Positions 1,944 to 14,379 of a stretch of 15,567 nucleotides of DNA are shown here, piece by piece. The stretch is from Promethearchaeia archaeon (GTDB lineage Archaea > Asgardarchaeota > Lokiarchaeia > Sigyniarchaeales > SOKP01). Each line of letters begins with the position of its first letter. Position 1 is the first letter of the stretch. Position numbers and translations under genes: made by a program. A model generated the notes under the pieces. It worked only from the letters and a program-made list of their open reading frames with translations, was not told where the DNA came from and did not search any database. The stretch is taken from assembly GCA_046483985.1 (NCBI GenBank), contig JAWOCD010000051.1:1-15567 (forward strand), read 5' to 3'.

Positions 1944-2006
1944 TAAAAATTAAATAATCGAATGTCCCTCGTTTTTTAATAATATTTGTATTATATATTA
2001 AATAAC

Positions 2007-4172
2007 ATGGTATCAGATGTTCCCCGCTACTTTAATCGCCATTATTTGAAAAAGAATCAGATTCATTATCGACATTATCAAGATAAAATTGCTAAAGCAT
2101 GTCAAGATAAAAATTCATTGGTAGTACTCCCCACAGGGTTGGGAAAGACAATTATTGCTTTTCTTGCCATGTCATATACCTTAGAAAAGTATAACCGCAA
2201 GGGGAAAATACTCTTATTGGCACCTACCCGACCGCTCGTCTCTCAACACGGACAATCGTGTGAAAAGTTTTTGAATATACCCCGTAACGAAATTGTTATT
2301 CTAAATGGTCGGGTAAAGCCTATCAAACGAGTCCAGTTATTCAACGAGTCAAAAATAGTTATTTCTACCCCTCAAGTCATTAAAAATGATATAGAACGTG
2401 GGAGATATGATCTCTCAAGGGTGACCCTTCTTATATTTGATGAGGCTCATAGAACGAAAGGAAATTATGCATACAATTTTATTTCCCATTATTATATTCA
2501 AAGGTGTAATGATCCGCAAATCTTAGGTCTCACTGCATCCCCGGGAAAAAATGAAGAGATCATACAAGATGTGTGCAATAATCTTTTTGTGGAGAATATT
2601 GTCTCAAAAAAGAGAAATGATGCAGATATTAAGAAATATATCCATGACATTGACCTCTATCTTGAATATGTTGATTTACCAATAGAACTTGTTGAGATTG
2701 TGGAAGTTTGGAAGAGTCTCTTTAATAAATATCTACAATTTTTTATTGACAGGGATTTAATCAATCCATATAAGGAATATTACTCAAAATTGGATTTTTT
2801 GGCAATAGCCAAAGATTTAACTCTTTCATTGAAATATGAGGAGGATGAATACCTTGATCCCGTGGAACAAGAAAAATATTTGGAGCAATTATATTATCGC
2901 GACCCGAAAATCATAGAAATCGTCCAAGAAAACAATCTTAATATCTATGCCATTTTTTCCTATTGTTCTTCTTGCATTTCCTTATTGCATGGGAAGGATT
3001 TATTGGAAACCCAAGATATTGCGTTATTTACCTCATTTTTGGAGAAAATAGAACGAAAAGCGGCAAATGACATTAAAGCGGGAAAACGTATTACTCGTTC
3101 TGAACACTTTAAACTCATACAGTCCCGGCTAAGCCAGAACAACAAAGCAGACTATGCTCATCCCAAAATTAAAAAGGTCTTTTCCCTCCTTAACGAGGAA
3201 TTGCACGAGCATGACAATAAAAAATTAATTATTTTCACCCAATATCGGGAAATGGCCGAGGAACTAAAAAAATTGGTGAGGGAAGAATTTGGGAATCTAC
3301 TAACCGTGGAAAAATTTATCGGACAAACCAATAAGATAGACGACCCAGGATTTTCCCAAAGCACCCAAATTGATATTTTAGATAAATTTCGAAATGATGA
3401 GATCGATGTATTAATTGCAACAAGTGTTGCCGAGGAAGGGCTGGATATTCCCAATGTCGATGCATTAATCTTTTATGAACCAGTGCCCTCCGAAATCCGG
3501 TTTATTCAAAGGCGTGGCCGGACGGGCAGATCTAAAGATGGACGCTGCTATATTTTAATTGCGAAAGGTACTGTGGATGTGCCGTTTTTTAAAGTGGCAA
3601 AGAAGAAAGTGGGCACCATGAATAATATTCTCGAGGATACCGAAAGATTAGACTTAAATCAGAGTATTGAACGAAAGAAAATCGATTTCTCGGTATTTGA
3701 AAATGCGTATTCCCAGTATGAAGTTATCAAAAATTTCAAGGAAAGGAAGGAGAAGGAAAAAGAGTTATTAGCACATCGCTCTCTGGAAGAAATTATCGAG
3801 AAAATTGATACTTTTTGTAAGAGCGAACAATATGGCAAATATAAAAATCAAGGAGTCACCTTTTTTAACGATGTGGTTGATTTAAACAAGGAAAAGATGA
3901 AATCGCATCTCTATAGGATTAAAAAAGTAAAAAAACCTAAAAACAAGAACAAAAAGAAAAGAAAACGATATCTGAATAATAATGTTAAAACACTCATAGA
4001 TATAGTCAAATATAGCGAAAATCAAGCGCTAAGTTTAGATAAATTTAAGGAATTTGCGGAAGACGAGGAAATTATTGGAAAAAAATTCCATATTCATTTC
4101 AATCGTGCCTGTTATTTAGAATATCTTAAAAAAGAAGATGGTCAAGTACTATTTCTGAAGGGATATGATTAA
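2007..4172 (+). CDS. hef: Hef/FANCM/Mph1-family SF2 DEAH-box helicase; C-terminal ERCC4 nuclease not recognisable
   Basis: Q-motif RHYQ, Walker A LPTGLGKT, Ia APTRPLVSQH, Ib STPQVIKND, II IFDEAHR, III GLTASPG, IV IIFTQYRE, V ATSVAEEGLDIP, YEPVPSEIR, VI QRRGRTGR. ATG 2007 is preferred over the TTG at 1986. Confidence 0.93.
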   Translation: MVSDVPRYFNRHYLKKNQIHYRHYQDKIAKACQDKNSLVVLPTGLGKTIIAFLAMSYTLEKYNRKGKILLLAPTRPLVSQHGQSCEKFLNIPRNEIVILNGRVKPIKRVQLFNESKIVISTPQVIKNDIERGRYDLSRVTLLIFDEAHRTKGNYAYNFISHYYIQRCNDPQILGLTASPGKNEEIIQDVCNNLFVENIVSKKRNDADIKKYIHDIDLYLEYVDLPIELVEIVEVWKSLFNKYLQFFIDRDLINPYKEYYSKLDFLAIAKDLTLSLKYEEDEYLDPVEQEKYLEQLYYRDPKIIEIVQENNLNIYAIFSYCSSCISLLHGKDLLETQDIALFTSFLEKIERKAANDIKAGKRITRSEHFKLIQSRLSQNNKADYAHPKIKKVFSLLNEELHEHDNKKLIIFTQYREMAEELKKLVREEFGNLLTVEKFIGQTNKIDDPGFSQSTQIDILDKFRNDEIDVLIATSVAEEGLDIPNVDALIFYEPVPSEIRFIQRRGRTGRSKDGRCYILIAKGTVDVPFFKVAKKKVGTMNNILEDTERLDLNQSIERKKIDFSVFENAYSQYEVIKNFKERKEKEKELLAHRSLEEIIEKIDTFCKSEQYGKYKNQGVTFFNDVVDLNKEKMKSHLYRIKKVKKPKNKNKKKRKRYLNNNVKTLIDIVKYSENQALSLDKFKEFAEDEEIIGKKFHIHFNRACYLEYLKKEDGQVLFLKGYD

Positions 4173-4476: not shown

Positions 4477-4752
4477 ATGATAGAGACAAATGAACTGATA
4501 ACCTTATTCATTGGAATAGGAACATGCATCTTCATTGTTACTAAATATTCAAATCTGATTAACCTCCCTAAGTTAAAACTGTTGGTTTCTTCGTTTTCTA
4601 TATTTTTACTCGGTTGGGTTTTAACAATCCTTGAAGGGATATTTTATCAAGATTTACTCAATATGGTCGAGCATCTGTGTTATTTCTCTGCTTCACTACT
4701 GCTCGTCATTTGGATCGTTAAAGTATATAAAAAAAGAGAGGGATGTAATTAA
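4477..4752 (+). CDS. Small 3-TM membrane protein, probable accessory sensor subunit of the downstream kinase
   Basis: 91 aa with three hydrophobic helices, a GGAGGT RBS ~7 nt upstream, and a stop that overlaps the kinase start (TAATG, 4750-4754). Confidence 0.8.
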   Translation: MIETNELITLFIGIGTCIFIVTKYSNLINLPKLKLLVSSFSIFLLGWVLTILEGIFYQDLLNMVEHLCYFSASLLLVIWIVKVYKKREGCN

Positions 4753-5759
4753 TGAATCTAATTAGTATTATTGATATCTCCTCTTTTATAACTATTATAA
4801 TTGGAATGTTAATTGTTATATTTAAGAGTTCGAAAAAAATTCCCGCGAATATGACGCGGATTATTCTATTGCTATTAATATTAAACTCTATTCATCATTT
4901 ATTCAACTTTATTGAATGGGCTATTTATCCTGTTATCGATTTTTATGACGATTTTATTGAAATTTTACAACCCATAATTTGGATGTTTGTTTTTTATGAG
5001 TTTATTCAAGAGGAGTCTAAGAAAGAGTTAATGAAAAGCAAACAAAGATATATTGAAGCCTATAATCGGGTTGAATTCTTTAAAGATCTTCTTGCCCACG
5101 ATATGGCCAACATTCTTCAAAATATTAATTCATCCATAGAGATGATTGAATTACAGGATATAGAGGGGACAATTTCGGAGAAGAGTAATGAAATGATGGA
5201 TATCATGAAAAATCAAATTACAAAGGGCTCCTCCTTAATCTCAAGAGTGCGGAAGCTCTCAAAAGTAGAGAAGGAAGTAAAGGATAAGAGTCTGGTTGAT
5301 ATAGAGAAGATACTTAATGAAATAATCAAACATATTCACTCTCGAGTTCGGGAAAAAAAGATTATAATAGAGAAGGAATTTGATTCCATCACCGATAAAG
5401 TGATGGGCGGTGATCTCCTTCTTCACGCTTTCGAAAATATCCTCCTAAATGGATGTGTCCATAACGACAGCGAACCCATAAAATTATGGGTTATTCTTTC
5501 TGAAGTTCAAGAGAACGGAGAAACTTTCGTAAAGATAGAGTTCAAGGACAACGGTATTGGTGTTTCAGATGAAACAAAAGAATCCATCTTTGAAAGGAAC
5601 TATAAAAAGAATAGAAATATGACTGGAATGGGTATTGGGTTATCGCTCGTGAAAAAAATTGTGAATGGTTATGGTGGTCAAATCCAAGTTGAGAACCGGG
5701 TAAAGGGGGATTATACTCAGGGAAGTAATTTTATCGTTACTTTACCAACGGTATCCTAA
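4752..5759 (+). CDS. Sensor histidine kinase (3-TM N-terminus, HisKA, HATPase_c)
   Basis: H-box LLAHDMANILQ, N-box AFENILLNG, G1 FKDNGIG, F-box IFE, G2 GMGIGLSLV, C-terminal GSNFIVTLP. Confidence 0.93.
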   Translation: MNLISIIDISSFITIIIGMLIVIFKSSKKIPANMTRIILLLLILNSIHHLFNFIEWAIYPVIDFYDDFIEILQPIIWMFVFYEFIQEESKKELMKSKQRYIEAYNRVEFFKDLLAHDMANILQNINSSIEMIELQDIEGTISEKSNEMMDIMKNQITKGSSLISRVRKLSKVEKEVKDKSLVDIEKILNEIIKHIHSRVREKKIIIEKEFDSITDKVMGGDLLLHAFENILLNGCVHNDSEPIKLWVILSEVQENGETFVKIEFKDNGIGVSDETKESIFERNYKKNRNMTGMGIGLSLVKKIVNGYGGQIQVENRVKGDYTQGSNFIVTLPTVS

Positions 5760-5791: not shown

Positions 5792-8700
5792 TCAAACTTT
5801 TTCCTTTTCTCGTTTCTTAAACATTAGGTAAGCAATTACAAACGTAATAAATAGAAGCGGGATTGCAGCTACCATTGGATTTTCACCGGTTAACACAAAA
5901 CTATAATAAGTAATCGTCAAAGTCGATGCAAAAAACGCGATAATGGAGCTATATTGAGTTGTGAAGTTCTTAAGCCTCGTAAGAAACATATAGACCTTGT
6001 AGTTCATTTTCTTAATGACTTGAAGCTCCTCCTCATTAATATTCTCCAAAACTCTGGGATCTTCATAATAGATCCCTAATCGGGGGTCATATTTTCCAGG
6101 TAACTGGTCTGACCCGATTAAATAAATTAAATAGTCTTGGATACGCTTTTTCTTAATTTTGAGTTCATTATTGATAAAGCTAATGGTAAGGAACCCATTT
6201 GCGACCGCTTTAATGCTCATCTCCACATAGGATTTTAAAATCATTCTATGGAGATTTTTAGCTTTCTCTTCTACGGTCTCCCCAAACTCTTTCAAAAACT
6301 TATCGAAGTCTTCAAAGAGGTATTTATTCTTAGTCTCAAAATTTTTGGCTTTTTTACTGTATCTTTTATTAAGGTTTTTAATCTCTTTTTTGGCTTCACC
6401 AATAAGATCTAAAATATTTTCTTTTCTTTTCCTTATTTTGTTGTTAGCCTTTTTGAATTCTCTTATCTCGATATATTCTTTCACTCTTTTTTGAAGCGTT
6501 CCGAGTAATTGAGAAAAGAATATCTTGCGTTCGTTTATGTAATTTAATAATTTTTCACGTAAATCTTCATGTTTTAAAATGTTGATTTTATCTCTCAATT
6601 TATCTTTCTTTTCTTCATATTCCTTAAAGAAATGGTTTTTGTTATTTACATAGATTTCTCTTAATTCTGCGTCAAGATTCTCGGATTTAAAATCATCATC
6701 TATTGATTTTTTAATTTTTTCATCAATTTCATCTTCTATATTCTCCAATCTATTCTCAAATTTTTCCCTTTTCTTGGTGAAGTACGCATTTACCTTTTCA
6801 TATGATTCAGTTTTATTTATTTTTTTTTCAATTGAGGTTTCAAATTCTCTTAATTCTAATTTTGCATTGTTATAACGAGAAATTATAAAGCTCTGAAGAT
6901 CTGAAAATAATTTAAGATTTTTTTTGATGTCCATCAAGGCCTGCGCATCCTTATTGATTCGAGATCCGAAATTTTGTTTAATTTCTTTAAAATCTTTCAA
7001 TGTCTGATCGATTCCAAGGGACCGCACTTTTTCATTAAATTTCTTCATCATTTCTTTGTCAAAATCGCTGAGTTCATTTATGCGATCTTGCAATTCGCTT
7101 AAATTTATTTTTAGGGTCTTATGTTTGATGGCAGAGTCATACAATGCTAAAATCTTTCCAACCGATTCATAATTTTTCTTTAGCAGTGAATTTTCTACAT
7201 AATTGTTAAGTTTTTTAATCTTAAAGTATTGTTCTGTATAAACTAACAGGTAATTTTCTTTTTCATCTAATTCTCCCTCGAGTTTAGACATGTCGATCAT
7301 ATCTTTTATCCTTTTCACTAGAATCTTACATTTAAGGTTTACGCTTTTCTTTAAATCTTTAATGAGGATACTGTTGGTCTTCGTTCTATTGATTAATTTA
7401 TTGATCTTAGCGCTTATGATGCTATTGATAAATTCGTCCCTCACATTCTCCAGTTCATCGTAAAAAAATTCCTTAAATTTTTTCCATTTTATAATGGAGA
7501 CTTTGAGTTTTTCGTTGAAATCCTTAACTAATTCATTGCATGCTTCTAATTTTTCTTCAAATTGCTCATCTATCTCTTGGAAATCTTCTTTTAACTCCTC
7601 TAAGTCATCTTCAATATCTGAAATCTCTAGATTTTTAATTATTTGTGGATCGCTTAACTCCTCTTTGTAATTTTGGATTTTACTCCTATACGTTGATGCA
7701 TTTTCGGAGATAAAATCTTCGAAATTTTTGATCTTGACTTTATTTCTTTTCTTAATTACTTTACTCCGAAGGTCACTGACGGGTTCTTCTATTAAATCTA
7801 TCAAATTCTCTTCGATTTGGTCAGATTTATTCTGCAAATGCCGATAGAGCAAGAACAACTTTTGATTCTTTGTTAACTCCTTGTCAACTGCTTTTTGAAT
7901 TTTTTTTATCTCTTTTGATTTTTCCTTAAGTTGCTCTTCCGACTGTTTTTTAATGATCTCAAATGCTTCTTGGAATTCTTTTTCTTGTATTGAATCAGCG
8001 ATTTTATCCTCAATATTCTTAATATCTCTGTTTATTCTTTGTTTTATTTGCTCCAACTTTTCCAAATAATCTTCAAAAAACTGAAATCCATGCTCGTAAT
8101 ATTCAAAAACTTCCGACATTTCTTCCTTAATGCTTATCCAATTGTTGATCACTTCTCTATGCTTCTTGAGGATTACCTCCTCCTCCGTCGAAATATTCTT
8201 CGAAAAGTCAAATATCTTTTGATCAAACTTCTCAACACTGTCCTTAATGCTTCTAAACTCCCGTTTAATTAAGGAGAATTTATCCTCTGTGTATCCGTCT
8301 TGTAGAGTTTCCCTGAGATACTTGCGAAAATCGTTTATCCGTTTGTTATAATAATTTCCTGTCTGAAATATCTTCTCATCCAGCTTTTCCAATTTGAAAT
8401 TGAGTTTCCTTAACTCTTCTTTTTCGGCAATCTCAACTTGTAGATCTTGATCGATATTTTTCAGTTTTTGTTTTAATCGAGAATATTCTTTTTGCCATTT
8501 TTTAATTTCCGTCGACAATCTAGCTCTAATATTAATATAGTATAGATCAACATTGAAGTTATTCTCTATATTCTCGTTGAGAAAGTCCGCGTTCATCAAA
8601 GCATCCCTGAGTATAAATCGGAGTCTCTGTTTTGCCAAATCAATCTCGTTTAATATTAAATAGCTCTTTACTTCCTCTTTAATTTGATTTGAGGTCTTTT

Positions 8701-10210
8701 TTAATTTTAAACGCATATTAAAGATATCATTTTCGATTTCTTTGAGTTTTTCTTTCTCTTCTTCTAACCGTTCCAAGTTGATCTTCGTATCGGAGATAAT
8801 TAGTTTTTCGATAAAGGTATCCAGATAAAAGTAATACTTTTTTTTGATTAGATATTTGCGTTTTGTTCTAATTTTTCCCTTAAAGAAATGCTCTTCTTTC
8901 ATATCGTCTATTAATTCTATAACATCCTTAACTTTTAGTTCCTCAACGGGAAAATCGGATTTATGCTCTGATACAATATCAGATATCGAGATAACGCTAT
9001 TTTCCCTTAGCGAATTATATACAGCTTTTGCAACTATTTGCTCTTTGGCATTTAAACCTTTAATGTAATTATGAAATTTATGTTCGTTATTAATTATCCT
9101 CAAGTTAAAAACATAATTTAAATTTATATAGGAAACGATATCTTCCATAACATCGGAAAGTCCGAACAGACAAGTAATTTTATTGAGATCAAGGAACGTT
9201 TTATCTTCGAGTTCCTTAAAGATTGCTCGTTCGATTTCATCGATAAACTTTTCCCAAATGAGTGATAAGATAATTATAAGTTTTGAGATGTCTTGAATCT
9301 TTCTTGGGCTCCAATTATCTTTATTTGCTAATATTTTTGTTAGGTGGGAATTTATATAGGCATATATTCCAGCAGGATTATAATCAAAGAACCAAGAAAA
9401 CGTATGTAGAGTGTATACGGTCCAAAAAGTCTCATTTATGGTAGATCTCTCCTCTGAAAAATTATATCCTCCGTCTTCTTTTTGTTGCCCATTTAGATAC
9501 TCCAAATCCTCTCTTTTAACCTTAGAGTTTAACCCTAAGTAATTTAAACAGAGGAGTTTAAAATTTACACTGTAATCTTCCGTAGTCTTACTGATAAAGT
9601 TCAAAAATTTTGATTGCTGGATTCGGATATCCGTTTTTAATAAAGAAAAAATTTCAATTATGAAAAAGAGCGTTTTTTCGGGCGGAAATCCTCCACATAT
9701 TTCGCAATCTTTATTTTTGCAATGGATAAATATGTTTTTTTTCTGATGCGATATGATAAACCGCTTAATTTCAGATGGAACCCGACCTTTTCCTTTTGAT
9801 TGTAAATATTCCTTCAAAACACCCAGAATTTTCATTGAGACCAAGGCGTAATACGTAGACCGGACATTGGGATACTTTTTAGGAGAAGCGGGATTCTCCT
9901 TAAATCCTATTCTCCCATCTTTTAGTTCGTATTGACAACTCTGGATAAATTTATACAATTCTTCTGTTTTCGCAAAATTTTGCTTGAAATACTTTCCCAA
10001 TAATAGAAACCAATACACTTTTTTTAGGGTAAGGCTTTTATCATCAAGCAAGTTTTTCTTGAAATATTCATAAAATTCATCCAACTGGTCATAAGCACTA
10101 AAGAAAAAACTGCCGATCTTTCGATCCTTAATTAAACTAAAGGATTTGAAGGGCGCTTTTTTGAATGTAGTGATATAAGGATAGCCAGATTTTTCTTCAA
10201 TTATTGTCAA
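5792..10210 (-). CDS. 1472-aa multidomain protein: prenyltransferase/squalene-oxidase-like repeats, PCI-like winged helices, long coiled coils, C-terminal 2-TM anchor
   Basis: Uninterrupted ORF with TTG start and GGAG ~10 nt upstream. PFTB-like repeats FIQSCQ..DGRIGF..PNVRSTYYAL and YLNGQQKEDGGY..STINETFWTV. PCI-like segments at aa ~945-990 and ~1339-1384. E/K-rich heptad regions. Hydrophobic hairpin at aa ~1421-1464 followed by KKREKEKV. The CDS itself is secure; domain calls are by motif recognition. Confidence 0.85.
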   Translation of the reverse strand: MTIIEEKSGYPYITTFKKAPFKSFSLIKDRKIGSFFFSAYDQLDEFYEYFKKNLLDDKSLTLKKVYWFLLLGKYFKQNFAKTEELYKFIQSCQYELKDGRIGFKENPASPKKYPNVRSTYYALVSMKILGVLKEYLQSKGKGRVPSEIKRFIISHQKKNIFIHCKNKDCEICGGFPPEKTLFFIIEIFSLLKTDIRIQQSKFLNFISKTTEDYSVNFKLLCLNYLGLNSKVKREDLEYLNGQQKEDGGYNFSEERSTINETFWTVYTLHTFSWFFDYNPAGIYAYINSHLTKILANKDNWSPRKIQDISKLIIILSLIWEKFIDEIERAIFKELEDKTFLDLNKITCLFGLSDVMEDIVSYINLNYVFNLRIINNEHKFHNYIKGLNAKEQIVAKAVYNSLRENSVISISDIVSEHKSDFPVEELKVKDVIELIDDMKEEHFFKGKIRTKRKYLIKKKYYFYLDTFIEKLIISDTKINLERLEEEKEKLKEIENDIFNMRLKLKKTSNQIKEEVKSYLILNEIDLAKQRLRFILRDALMNADFLNENIENNFNVDLYYINIRARLSTEIKKWQKEYSRLKQKLKNIDQDLQVEIAEKEELRKLNFKLEKLDEKIFQTGNYYNKRINDFRKYLRETLQDGYTEDKFSLIKREFRSIKDSVEKFDQKIFDFSKNISTEEEVILKKHREVINNWISIKEEMSEVFEYYEHGFQFFEDYLEKLEQIKQRINRDIKNIEDKIADSIQEKEFQEAFEIIKKQSEEQLKEKSKEIKKIQKAVDKELTKNQKLFLLYRHLQNKSDQIEENLIDLIEEPVSDLRSKVIKKRNKVKIKNFEDFISENASTYRSKIQNYKEELSDPQIIKNLEISDIEDDLEELKEDFQEIDEQFEEKLEACNELVKDFNEKLKVSIIKWKKFKEFFYDELENVRDEFINSIISAKINKLINRTKTNSILIKDLKKSVNLKCKILVKRIKDMIDMSKLEGELDEKENYLLVYTEQYFKIKKLNNYVENSLLKKNYESVGKILALYDSAIKHKTLKINLSELQDRINELSDFDKEMMKKFNEKVRSLGIDQTLKDFKEIKQNFGSRINKDAQALMDIKKNLKLFSDLQSFIISRYNNAKLELREFETSIEKKINKTESYEKVNAYFTKKREKFENRLENIEDEIDEKIKKSIDDDFKSENLDAELREIYVNNKNHFFKEYEEKKDKLRDKINILKHEDLREKLLNYINERKIFFSQLLGTLQKRVKEYIEIREFKKANNKIRKRKENILDLIGEAKKEIKNLNKRYSKKAKNFETKNKYLFEDFDKFLKEFGETVEEKAKNLHRMILKSYVEMSIKAVANGFLTISFINNELKIKKKRIQDYLIYLIGSDQLPGKYDPRLGIYYEDPRVLENINEEELQVIKKMNYKVYMFLTRLKNFTTQYSSIIAFFASTLTITYYSFVLTGENPMVAAIPLLFITFVIAYLMFKKREKEKV

Positions 10211-10388
10211 AATAAAAATTCTCCACTTTTCTCTATTAAAAGAAAAGAAAATTCAAGATAATAAGTTTTGAGATCATCAAAATTAAAAGTTTTAAGATTT
10301 ACCTTTAACAAAAATAATAATATTATTTTGGAATCTTCAATTTTACCAAAATAGTTAAGAATTTTTTTATAGACAAGAAGTGAATATA

Positions 10389-11582
10389 ATGGTATCTCGG
10401 AGATTAAGAGACCTTTCATACGCTATTCGGGATATAGCGGTGATCGCAGATAAGGTAGAAGCGTCAGGCAAGGAAGTCTATCATTTAAACATAGGCGATC
10501 CGGTTATTTATGATTTTCAAACTCCTAAGTACATCTCTCAAGCTTTGGCAGACGCCACATTTGCGGGTCAAAATTATTACGTTAATTCTCTGGGTGTTCC
10601 CGAGTTGCGAGAAGAGATTTGTCGATACGAAAAGGCAAAGAATGGAATTGCCATCACTCCCGATGATATACTTGTTACTTCGGGGGTGACGGAAGGAATC
10701 TTTTTCCTATTGGCTGGTTTATTAGAAAATGGAGAAGAACTTCTATTACCTGGTCCAACATATCCCGTATATCCCAACTATTCAAAATTCTTTGATGGAG
10801 TCCCGGTGGAATATGAATTAGATGAATCAAACAGATGGGATCCAAATATTGATGATCTCCGACAGAAAATATCAGACAAGACAAAAGCAATTTTGATTGG
10901 TTCTCCCAATAATCCCACGGGTGTAATATATAGCGACCAAAAGGTAAAACAAATTATTGATATTGCCGGAGAGCACGATATTCCGATAATCTCGGACGAA
11001 ATCTACGATCAAATTATATTTGAAAAACAATATACATGTCCAGCCTCGCTCAGTAAGGATGTGCCCATTATCGGGTTAAATGGGTTCTCTAAGGCGCATT
11101 TGGCTACTGGTTGGAGAATGGGATATATGTATTATTATGATCCGGAGAAAAAGATCATAGATTTAAAACGCGGCATTGAAAAAATGGCGAGGGCTCGATT
11201 ATGCGCAAATTCAATCGCTCAATACGCCGCTATTGAAGCTTTAAGAAACCCCGGACCTCATACCGAAAAGATGGTTAGGAAATTACGAGTCAGGCGGGAT
11301 TATTCCTATAAACGCTTGAAACGCATTGAAAGAATTACATGTGTTAAGCCAGACGGCGCTTTTTATCTCTTTCCAAAAATTGATCTCGATGAATTTTCCC
11401 AATGGGACACGGATAAAGAATTTGTAATTGATTTGCTCAAGAAAACTGGAGTCTGCACCGTATTCGGCTCCGGATTTGGGAATCACGGGAAGGATCATTT
11501 TCGGCTCACATACCTCCCTCAAGTGGAAGTCTTGGAGAAAGTATATGACATCATTGAGGAATTCATCAATAAAGCCCAATAG
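10389..11582 (+). CDS. PLP-dependent class I/II aminotransferase, AlaA/alanine-aminotransferase-like
   Basis: LSYAIRDI and LNIGDP N-terminus, PNNPTG, SDEIYD, PLP-lysine motif NGFSKAHLATGWRMG, GAFYLFP, GSGFG and HFRLTYLP. Start is ATG 10389 or GTG 10380. Confidence 0.93.
   Translation: MVSRRLRDLSYAIRDIAVIADKVEASGKEVYHLNIGDPVIYDFQTPKYISQALADATFAGQNYYVNSLGVPELREEICRYEKAKNGIAITPDDILVTSGVTEGIFFLLAGLLENGEELLLPGPTYPVYPNYSKFFDGVPVEYELDESNRWDPNIDDLRQKISDKTKAILIGSPNNPTGVIYSDQKVKQIIDIAGEHDIPIISDEIYDQIIFEKQYTCPASLSKDVPIIGLNGFSKAHLATGWRMGYMYYYDPEKKIIDLKRGIEKMARARLCANSIAQYAAIEALRNPGPHTEKMVRKLRVRRDYSYKRLKRIERITCVKPDGAFYLFPKIDLDEFSQWDTDKEFVIDLLKKTGVCTVFGSGFGNHGKDHFRLTYLPQVEVLEKVYDIIEEFINKAQ

Positions 11583-12174: not shown

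Positions 12175-14379
<2,205 letters not shown>

Follow-up and report, generated by a model that had tools for sequence, protein, structure and literature searches.

The window analysed here is a 15,567-nucleotide stretch of DNA from a Promethearchaeia archaeon of the class Lokiarchaeia (contig JAWOCD010000051.1), and the gene in question lies on its minus strand at positions 5792..10210, where one open reading frame (ORF) encodes a protein of 1,472 amino acids (aa), from here on referred to as the giant protein. The ORF starts with TTG, preceded by GGAG about 10 nt upstream, and this start is considered sound since residue 1 of the protein aligns with residue 1 of most full-length orthologues. 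The gene is present in a single copy in the source genome (4.06 Mb in 128 contigs, 97% complete) and is monocistronic, because the upstream neighbour, an aminotransferase (10380-11582, plus strand), is divergent while the downstream neighbour, a histidine kinase (4752-5759, plus strand), is convergent. Public sequencing data comprised two DNA runs with small shares and none of RNA. An earlier note on this DNA had read the gene as encoding a membrane-anchored protein with a prenyltransferase-like head, PCI signatures and coiled coils, and every motif quoted there was found at the position given. Its statement that no characterised protein has such an architecture also held, as none was found in Pfam, NCBIfam, PDB sequence and fold searches or in the literature. 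The features of the gene and its product are, from the N-terminus to the C-terminus:

5792..10210, minus strand: whole ORF (1,472 aa) beginning with TTG, present once in the genome.
10103..10210, minus strand: N-terminal peptide, aa 1-36, highly conserved with P11, Y12, T14, K17 and S23 invariant, modelled as disordered.
9200..10102, minus strand: predicted alpha/alpha toroid like that of protein prenyltransferase beta subunits, lacking the Asp/Cys/His zinc triad, aa 37-337 (AlphaFold2 model, sequence and fold searches).
9695..9724, minus strand: H-C-x4-C-x2-C knuckle, aa 163-172, inserted in the loop of toroid repeat 3, likely a structural metal site.
9053..9199, minus strand: putative small winged-helix-like unit, aa 338-386 (aa 339-385 in the model), from the secondary structure of the model only.
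8792..9052, minus strand: predicted classical winged helix (H-S-H-H-S-S), aa 387-473 (aa 388-473 in the model), predicted local distance difference test (pLDDT) mostly 84-95 with one 10-residue block at 73.
7382..8776, minus strand: rod 1, aa 479-943, four predicted spectrin-like three-helix bundles.
7241..7372, minus strand: PCI-type winged helix 2 (WH2), aa 947-990, from the model.
6206..7234, minus strand: rod 2, aa 993-1335, three predicted spectrin-like bundles, assigned from the alternation of long and short modelled helices (fold searches barely covered this rod).
6065..6193, minus strand: PCI-type winged helix 3 (WH3), aa 1340-1382, from the model, very conserved.
5954..6055, minus strand: short helices and a basic juxtamembrane helix, aa 1386-1419, from the model.
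5816..5950, minus strand: transmembrane (TM) helical hairpin with a TGENP turn, aa 1421-1465, found in all TM-type representatives.
5792..5815, minus strand: basic tail KREKEKV, aa 1466-1472, and stop codon, from the ORF translation.

The AlphaFold2 model of aa 1-480 (pLDDT 83.8, predicted template modelling score, pTM, 0.79) shows twelve helices across aa 40-337 which form an alpha/alpha toroid of six helical hairpins, in line with the prenyltransferase-beta-like repeats that the earlier note had recognised in this part. The giant protein itself scores 26.2 bits against the prenyltransferase family PF00432, the cut-off being 26.5, while a paralogue described below reaches 60.3 bits and most orthologues carry a precomputed match. 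When the family profile was searched against PDB sequences only RabGGTase beta matched (E 7e-4), a Foldseek search with the head model gave the same ranking, and the neighbours of the head in the ESM Atlas are PF00432 toroids from eukaryotes, bacteria and archaea. The predicted toroid fold is thus a firm assignment. The nearest sequences outside the family are secreted bacterial proteins of about 330 aa (from Nitrospirota and others) and a eukaryote-type GGTase beta, and since the bacterial toroids are equally close no specifically eukaryotic ancestry is claimed for the head. The best reading is that it belongs by descent to the prenyltransferase-beta/terpene-cyclase superfamily and has lost the catalytic zinc triad. 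The peptide preceding it has a mean column identity of 0.74 over aa 1-20 and a pLDDT of 26-30, and a related motif is found in the paralogue. The only other PF00432 protein of the genome is a 378-aa toroid (L008:1285-2421 (-), from G000:C107) that starts with a signal-like helix and ends with a TM helix, which makes it probably extracellular; the ORF upstream of it (L008:2563-3585 (-)) resembles, judged by eye, an actin-fold fragment with several CxxC zinc-ribbon motifs.

The loss of the triad was seen when comparing the family with P0164, a eukaryote-type GGTase beta, in an in-register MAFFT alignment that replaced a local hhalign alignment with out-of-register repeats. P0164 carries the canonical motifs D-V-C-Y-S and E-H-T, which hold the zinc ligands in FTase (D297, C299, H362) and RabGGTase, and family columns 257, 259 and 307 are the counterparts of its Asp, Cys and His. 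All three columns are variable (N/K/D/E/T, N/D/S/E and E/D/K/S/N, respectively), and in none of 46 sequences are they occupied by Cys or His. Next to the zinc motif the comparator has an Arg and a Lys, prenyl diphosphate binders in FTase, where the family shows F/Y and a variable column in which Arg is absent and Lys infrequent. Searching the 97%-complete genome for an alpha subunit (PPTA, PF01239) gave a single match, a TPR protein at 25.9 bits, below the cut-off of 29.5. The genome has 65 matches to the Ras family (PF00071), and a C-terminus of the CaaX, CC or CXC type was present in none of the 39 GTPases checked, which agrees with a review table where prenyltransferases and CAAX boxes are both absent from Lokiarchaeum (PMC4917890). 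Several of these GTPases end in zinc-ribbon-like CxxC pairs instead. With no zinc triad family-wide, no credible alpha subunit and no prenylation motifs on the GTPases, it is unlikely that the giant protein works as a canonical prenyltransferase or recognises prenylated GTPases, and this setting speaks against the prenyl- or prenylated-GTPase-binding head envisaged in the earlier note.

The head contains a different cluster of potential metal ligands, the knuckle in repeat 3, in which all 43 orthologues share H163, C164 and C169 and 42 of them have C, D, E or H at position 172. It is absent from the orthologue in a closed genome of the sister family (G210) and from five other TM-type representatives, and the cluster is for this reason likely a dispensable structural metal knuckle.

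The earlier note had also placed winged helices directly after the head (aa ~325-465), and two such units are modelled there, at aa 339-385 and 388-473. Of the two PCI signatures that it had proposed further on, both model as winged helices (WH2 and WH3, each strand-helix-helix-strand-strand and capping a long helix) and both are backed at the level of the family, while the scores of the giant protein itself for PCI (PF01399), 17.2 and ~12 bits, stay below the cut-off of 22. Matches to PCI at E<=0.01 were found in 24 of the 43 orthologues, with no other family recurring; 37.8 bits were obtained with the orthologue from the closed genome and 29.2 and 25.7 bits with the paralogue, the last of these in a tandem region equivalent to the unit at aa 338-386, which also gives 18.7 bits with E3_UFM1_ligase. 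The weak list obtained with Foldseek for the rod half of the protein is dominated by PCI subunits of the proteasome lid, the COP9 signalosome and eIF3, PCI subunits of TREX-2 are also among the structural matches, and WH2 superposes on the winged helix of DDRGK1 with 2.1 Å over 65 residues. WH2 and WH3 can be aligned in register with hhalign (P 0.0014), which hints at an origin by internal duplication. A homodimer prediction using two copies of aa 1296-1420 (WH3 and the juxtamembrane helices) together with an alignment gave a score of 0.00 and no verdict either way. Eight further PCI (PF01399) matches are found in unrelated ORFs of the genome, which include a 797-aa protein with three of them and a 1,362-aa multi-TM protein; the ORFs are G000:C59:43671-46064 (-), C25:14439-18527 (-), C66:41892-43367 (-), C97:25345-28311 (-) and C17:116391-117023 (+). 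PCI-type winged helices thus seem to be a recurrent module in the source genome.

Between the winged helices lie the two regions that had been taken for long E/K coiled coils. This interpretation was not borne out by the model of aa 470-1472 (pLDDT 81.4, pTM 0.34), in which they instead appear as about seven serial spectrin-like three-helix bundles. A golgin-type continuous coiled coil does not fit the model, which splits the region into helices of 30-75 residues packed as bundles. The modelled helices alternate between ~65-75 and 30-36 residues with a period of ~107-109 aa (in rod 1 the lengths are ~41, 30, 71, 30, 65, 36, 70, 32 and 41 residues), and the top structural matches of the rod are tandem spectrin and plakin repeats over ~300-350 residues. 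Foldseek with the rod half gave no match at E<=1e-3, the spectrin family PF00435 was matched only at E 0.22 (12.5 bits versus a cut-off of 29.9), and a search of PDB sequences with the rod/PCI profile returned chance-level coiled-coil and apolipoprotein matches only. A Pfam match to ApoC-I at aa 1299-1327 was discarded as a short amphipathic-helix match below the cut-off. Since a spectrin repeat is about 5 nm long, the predicted rods could hold the head up to roughly 35-40 nm from the bilayer.

At the C-terminus two hydrophobic helices (aa 1421-1441 and 1445-1465) are separated by TGENP and followed by KKREKEKV, so that the two TM helices and the basic tail of the earlier note are all present, and no further hydrophobic stretch or signal peptide occurs along the giant protein. 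Basic residues are found on both flanks of the hairpin, and as the positive-inside rule puts both hairpin ends inside, we infer that all 1,420 preceding residues are cytoplasmic. The model and the topology signals together support the suggestion of a cytoplasm-facing, C-terminally anchored rod with a distal head of prenyltransferase fold.

Some genomes of the class contain a paralogue subfamily of 1,230-1,355 aa (L016:7129-10869 (+) from G144:C2, and also P0130, P0139 and P0143), which keeps the toroid head, the His/Cys knuckle, the winged helices, the rod and PCI and has no TM segment. Its C-terminus is formed by a conserved soluble domain of about 150 aa with the final motif FELYR[LIV]. This domain gave no Pfam match at E<=5, a word-based search yielded, apart from fragments of the family, just unnamed proteins of 244-287 aa, and a resemblance to roadblock/LAMTOR2/longin clusters was seen by language-model feature score only (0.86-0.88). 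Because the paralogue has a soluble domain where the giant protein has its TM hairpin, the anchoring end seems exchangeable, in keeping with a modular head-rod-anchor design.

A search with aa 1-480 gave 95 clusters, nearly all of 1,463-1,504 residues and with 40-50% identity, named in the databases as hypothetical, as conserved membrane protein of unknown function or as prenyltransferase/squalene oxidase repeat-containing protein. The alignment of the 43 full-length orthologues (1,463-1,504 aa) is almost gap-free with a mean column identity of 61% over the whole length, rods included, and the giant protein is under strong purifying constraint. The best conserved part is the first rod bundle (aa 481-560), and the uniform conservation of the rods together with that of this bundle and the N-terminal peptide suggests many unrecognised contacts. 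When a profile of the head was run against 301 genomes sampled across the phylum, matches were found in 65 of the 68 genomes of the family to which the window belongs, in five of seven genomes of the sister family, including a closed genome of 4.36 Mb, and in the one genome of a further family of the same class. Outside the class only three marginal matches (E>1e-5) appeared in ~225 genomes, and among 1.84 billion representatives an exhaustive profile search found only 163 proteins at E<=1e-3. Divergent long members with names are labelled Promethearchaeota or Helarchaeota; some NCBI labels of relatives (Hod-, Hermod-, Thor- and Heimdallarchaeota) are unconfirmed and at odds with the genome-based tally. 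As this tally confines the matches to the class of the window, the family is restricted to Lokiarchaeia, including Helarchaeota-labelled genomes, among the genomes searched, and the Asgard-wide range envisaged earlier was too broad. No description of the family was found in the literature searched on Asgard archaea and Lokiarchaeia, and an NCBIfam scan of the whole giant protein gave no match. The protein is not SMC-like, as neither Pfam nor NCBIfam matched an ABC-type ATPase head or a hinge anywhere along it. It is a real and uncharacterised protein present in nearly all Lokiarchaeia searched.

Taken together we favour, by somewhat more than even chances, the view that the giant protein works in the cytoplasm as a linker or scaffold anchored to the membrane, its head binding a ligand without being catalytic. 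The C-terminal TM hairpin would hold the protein at the inner face of the cell membrane, and from the membrane outward there would follow a PCI-type winged helix, about three spectrin-like bundles, a second PCI-type winged helix, about four bundles, two winged helices and the toroid head. The head would most likely serve as a binding pocket, a peptide or an isoprenoid moiety being candidate ligands, and the winged helices would most likely be protein-docking joints; PCI domains dock proteins elsewhere.

The head, the winged helices and the rods of the giant protein each resemble a known system, from which they also differ. The head has the same toroid fold as the beta subunits of protein prenyltransferases (FTase, GGTase-I and RabGGTase/GGTase-III; PF00432), but it lacks the zinc triad, neither an alpha partner nor CaaX substrates among the GTPases checked turned up in the genome, a His/Cys knuckle is inserted in repeat 3, and some 1,130 further residues with a membrane anchor follow in the same chain. 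Winged helices capping a helical segment are likewise found in PCI scaffolds (the Rpn subunits of the proteasome lid, the COP9 signalosome, eIF3 and PCID2 of TREX-2) and in UFL1/DDRGK1, whereas the giant protein has three to four of them in one polypeptide, the helices preceding them would form spectrin-like bundles and no TPR-like solenoid, and its own PCI scores are below the cut-off with those of orthologues and the paralogue above. With spectrin-repeat rods, such as the tail-anchored nesprins (KASH proteins) and plakins, it shares modelled three-helix bundles of ~106 aa joined by continuous helices. This is an architectural resemblance known from models and not a demonstrated homology, given that the giant protein is no member of PF00435 (E 0.22). 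Compared with nesprins and plakins its predicted head is a toroid and not a calponin-homology actin binder, it is anchored in the cell membrane by a TM hairpin, and winged helices interrupt the rod.

A non-canonical membrane-tethered isoprenoid enzyme, that is a protein or lipid prenyltransferase or a cyclase-like protein in which the metal centre has moved to the mouth of the barrel and is formed by the His/Cys cluster at aa 163-172, would agree with the head being nearest in both sequence and fold to protein prenyltransferase beta subunits, with the invariance of H163, C164 and C169 and a potential ligand at position 172 in 42 of 43 orthologues, and with the location of the cluster in a repeat loop on what the repeat register indicates to be the same barrel face as the canonical zinc site. 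We consider it very improbable, since a catalytic centre would not be lost in otherwise intact orthologues, and the cluster is missing from the closed-genome orthologue of the sister family and from five TM-type representatives that are otherwise intact. In addition the canonical triad and the adjacent Arg and Lys of the comparator are absent, neither an alpha subunit nor CaaX-type GTPase substrates were found in the genome, and a spacing of four ligands over ten residues is what a structural knuckle looks like. Little probability is likewise given to a golgin-like vesicle or membrane tether, in which a dimeric coiled-coil rod carries a head catching prenylated small GTPases or isoprenoid-bearing membranes. 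The C-terminal membrane anchor, the long helical region and the distal head with a lipid-binding fold are what such a tether would have, the genome is rich in small GTPases (65 Ras-family matches), and the C-terminal domain of the paralogue is roadblock/longin-like by its feature score (0.86-0.88, a lead only), roadblock and longin proteins being partners of GTPases. The helical region, however, models as serial three-helix bundles with spectrin periodicity and a prenylation motif was present in 0 of 39 Ras-family GTPases, Lokiarchaeal GTPases having already been reported to lack CAAX boxes (PMC4917890).

The toroid might also bind an archaeal isoprenoid lipid or a polyprenyl phosphate with the hairpin in the same or a facing membrane, making the protein a two-point strut or a lipid sensor that sets or senses spacing in protrusions or between membranes. 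Archaeal membranes are isoprenoid-based, many invariant aromatics (W67, F262, W263, W319 and F322) are on helices assigned to the inner barrel by helix order, and the length of the protein is strictly fixed across the family. Conservation of the inner helices is equally expected on structural grounds, though, and the family has not kept the basic residues with which prenyltransferases bind the diphosphate; we regard such a role as improbable. The reading given least weight, a remote one, is a UFL1/DDRGK1-like membrane scaffold, whose tandem PCI-type winged helices would dock the ribosome or another large machine, or a ubiquitin-like conjugation system, at the membrane. It is prompted by the similarity of the winged helices, which may only reflect the common PCI-type winged-helix fold, and scores are below the cut-offs both for DDRGK (PF09756, 13.8 versus 27.8 bits) and for E3_UFM1_ligase (PF09743, 18.7 versus 23.2 bits, in the paralogue only). 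The 97%-complete genome gave no match to Ufm1; a search for UFC1 was also blank but matched no control and is therefore uninformative.

Several points also weigh against the linker or scaffold that we favour. All folds in it are predicted, and head binding and the linker or scaffold role are deduced for every member of the family. The pTM of 0.34 leaves the arrangement of the bundles and the length of the rod uncertain, and a passive spacer would not usually be conserved as evenly as these rods are, which points to extensive contacts yet to be recognised or to a fold that is more compact. The near-universal H-C-x4-C-x2-[CDEH] site could still support chemistry, and the neighbouring genes offer no clue to function.

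A more specific version of the linker, to which we give a rather low probability, is a spectrin-like membrane linker that defines the Lokiarchaeia, a functional analogue of nesprins or the spectrin membrane skeleton. Its repurposed prenyltransferase-type head and PCI-type joints would tie the inner face of the membrane to a partner, either cytoskeletal or macromolecular. If so, the giant protein would belong to the machinery behind the unusual cell architecture of Lokiarchaeia, a class including the first cultured Asgard archaea with a studied cell biology, and an archaeal case of three modules (the prenyltransferase-beta toroid, the PCI winged helix and the spectrin-like repeat) otherwise best known from eukaryotes. 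As a near-universal single-copy protein of ~1,470 residues it would, if it is a membrane-to-cytoplasm linker, give a testable handle on how membrane and cytoplasm are organised, and an orthologue may well be present in a cultured strain, seeing that some closed genomes of the class have one. The analysis also corrects a likely mis-annotation as an enzyme.

When comparing the neighbourhoods of six loci only the divergent aminotransferase and a convergent Hef-like helicase were found to recur, and both are absent at the most distant locus. The aminotransferase, of class I/II, lies upstream of the giant gene in the window, L010 and L012. The Hef/DEAD-like helicase (715-734 aa) is located at 1986-4172 (plus strand) in the window, convergent to the giant gene, and has the same convergent placement in L011, L012 and L013, the sister family included. 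These flanking genes look like conserved synteny and not an operon. In the source genome only, the giant gene and the helicase are separated by a pair at 4477-5759 (plus strand), in which a 91-aa membrane ORF has a one-base overlap with the 335-aa histidine kinase, itself with an N-terminal membrane region. Further along the window, at 12181-14379 (plus strand), there is a catalase-peroxidase (KatG-like) ORF with a guanine-plus-cytosine content of 43-47.5% as compared with 29-36% in the rest of the window, and this higher content suggests that the ORF may have been acquired horizontally.

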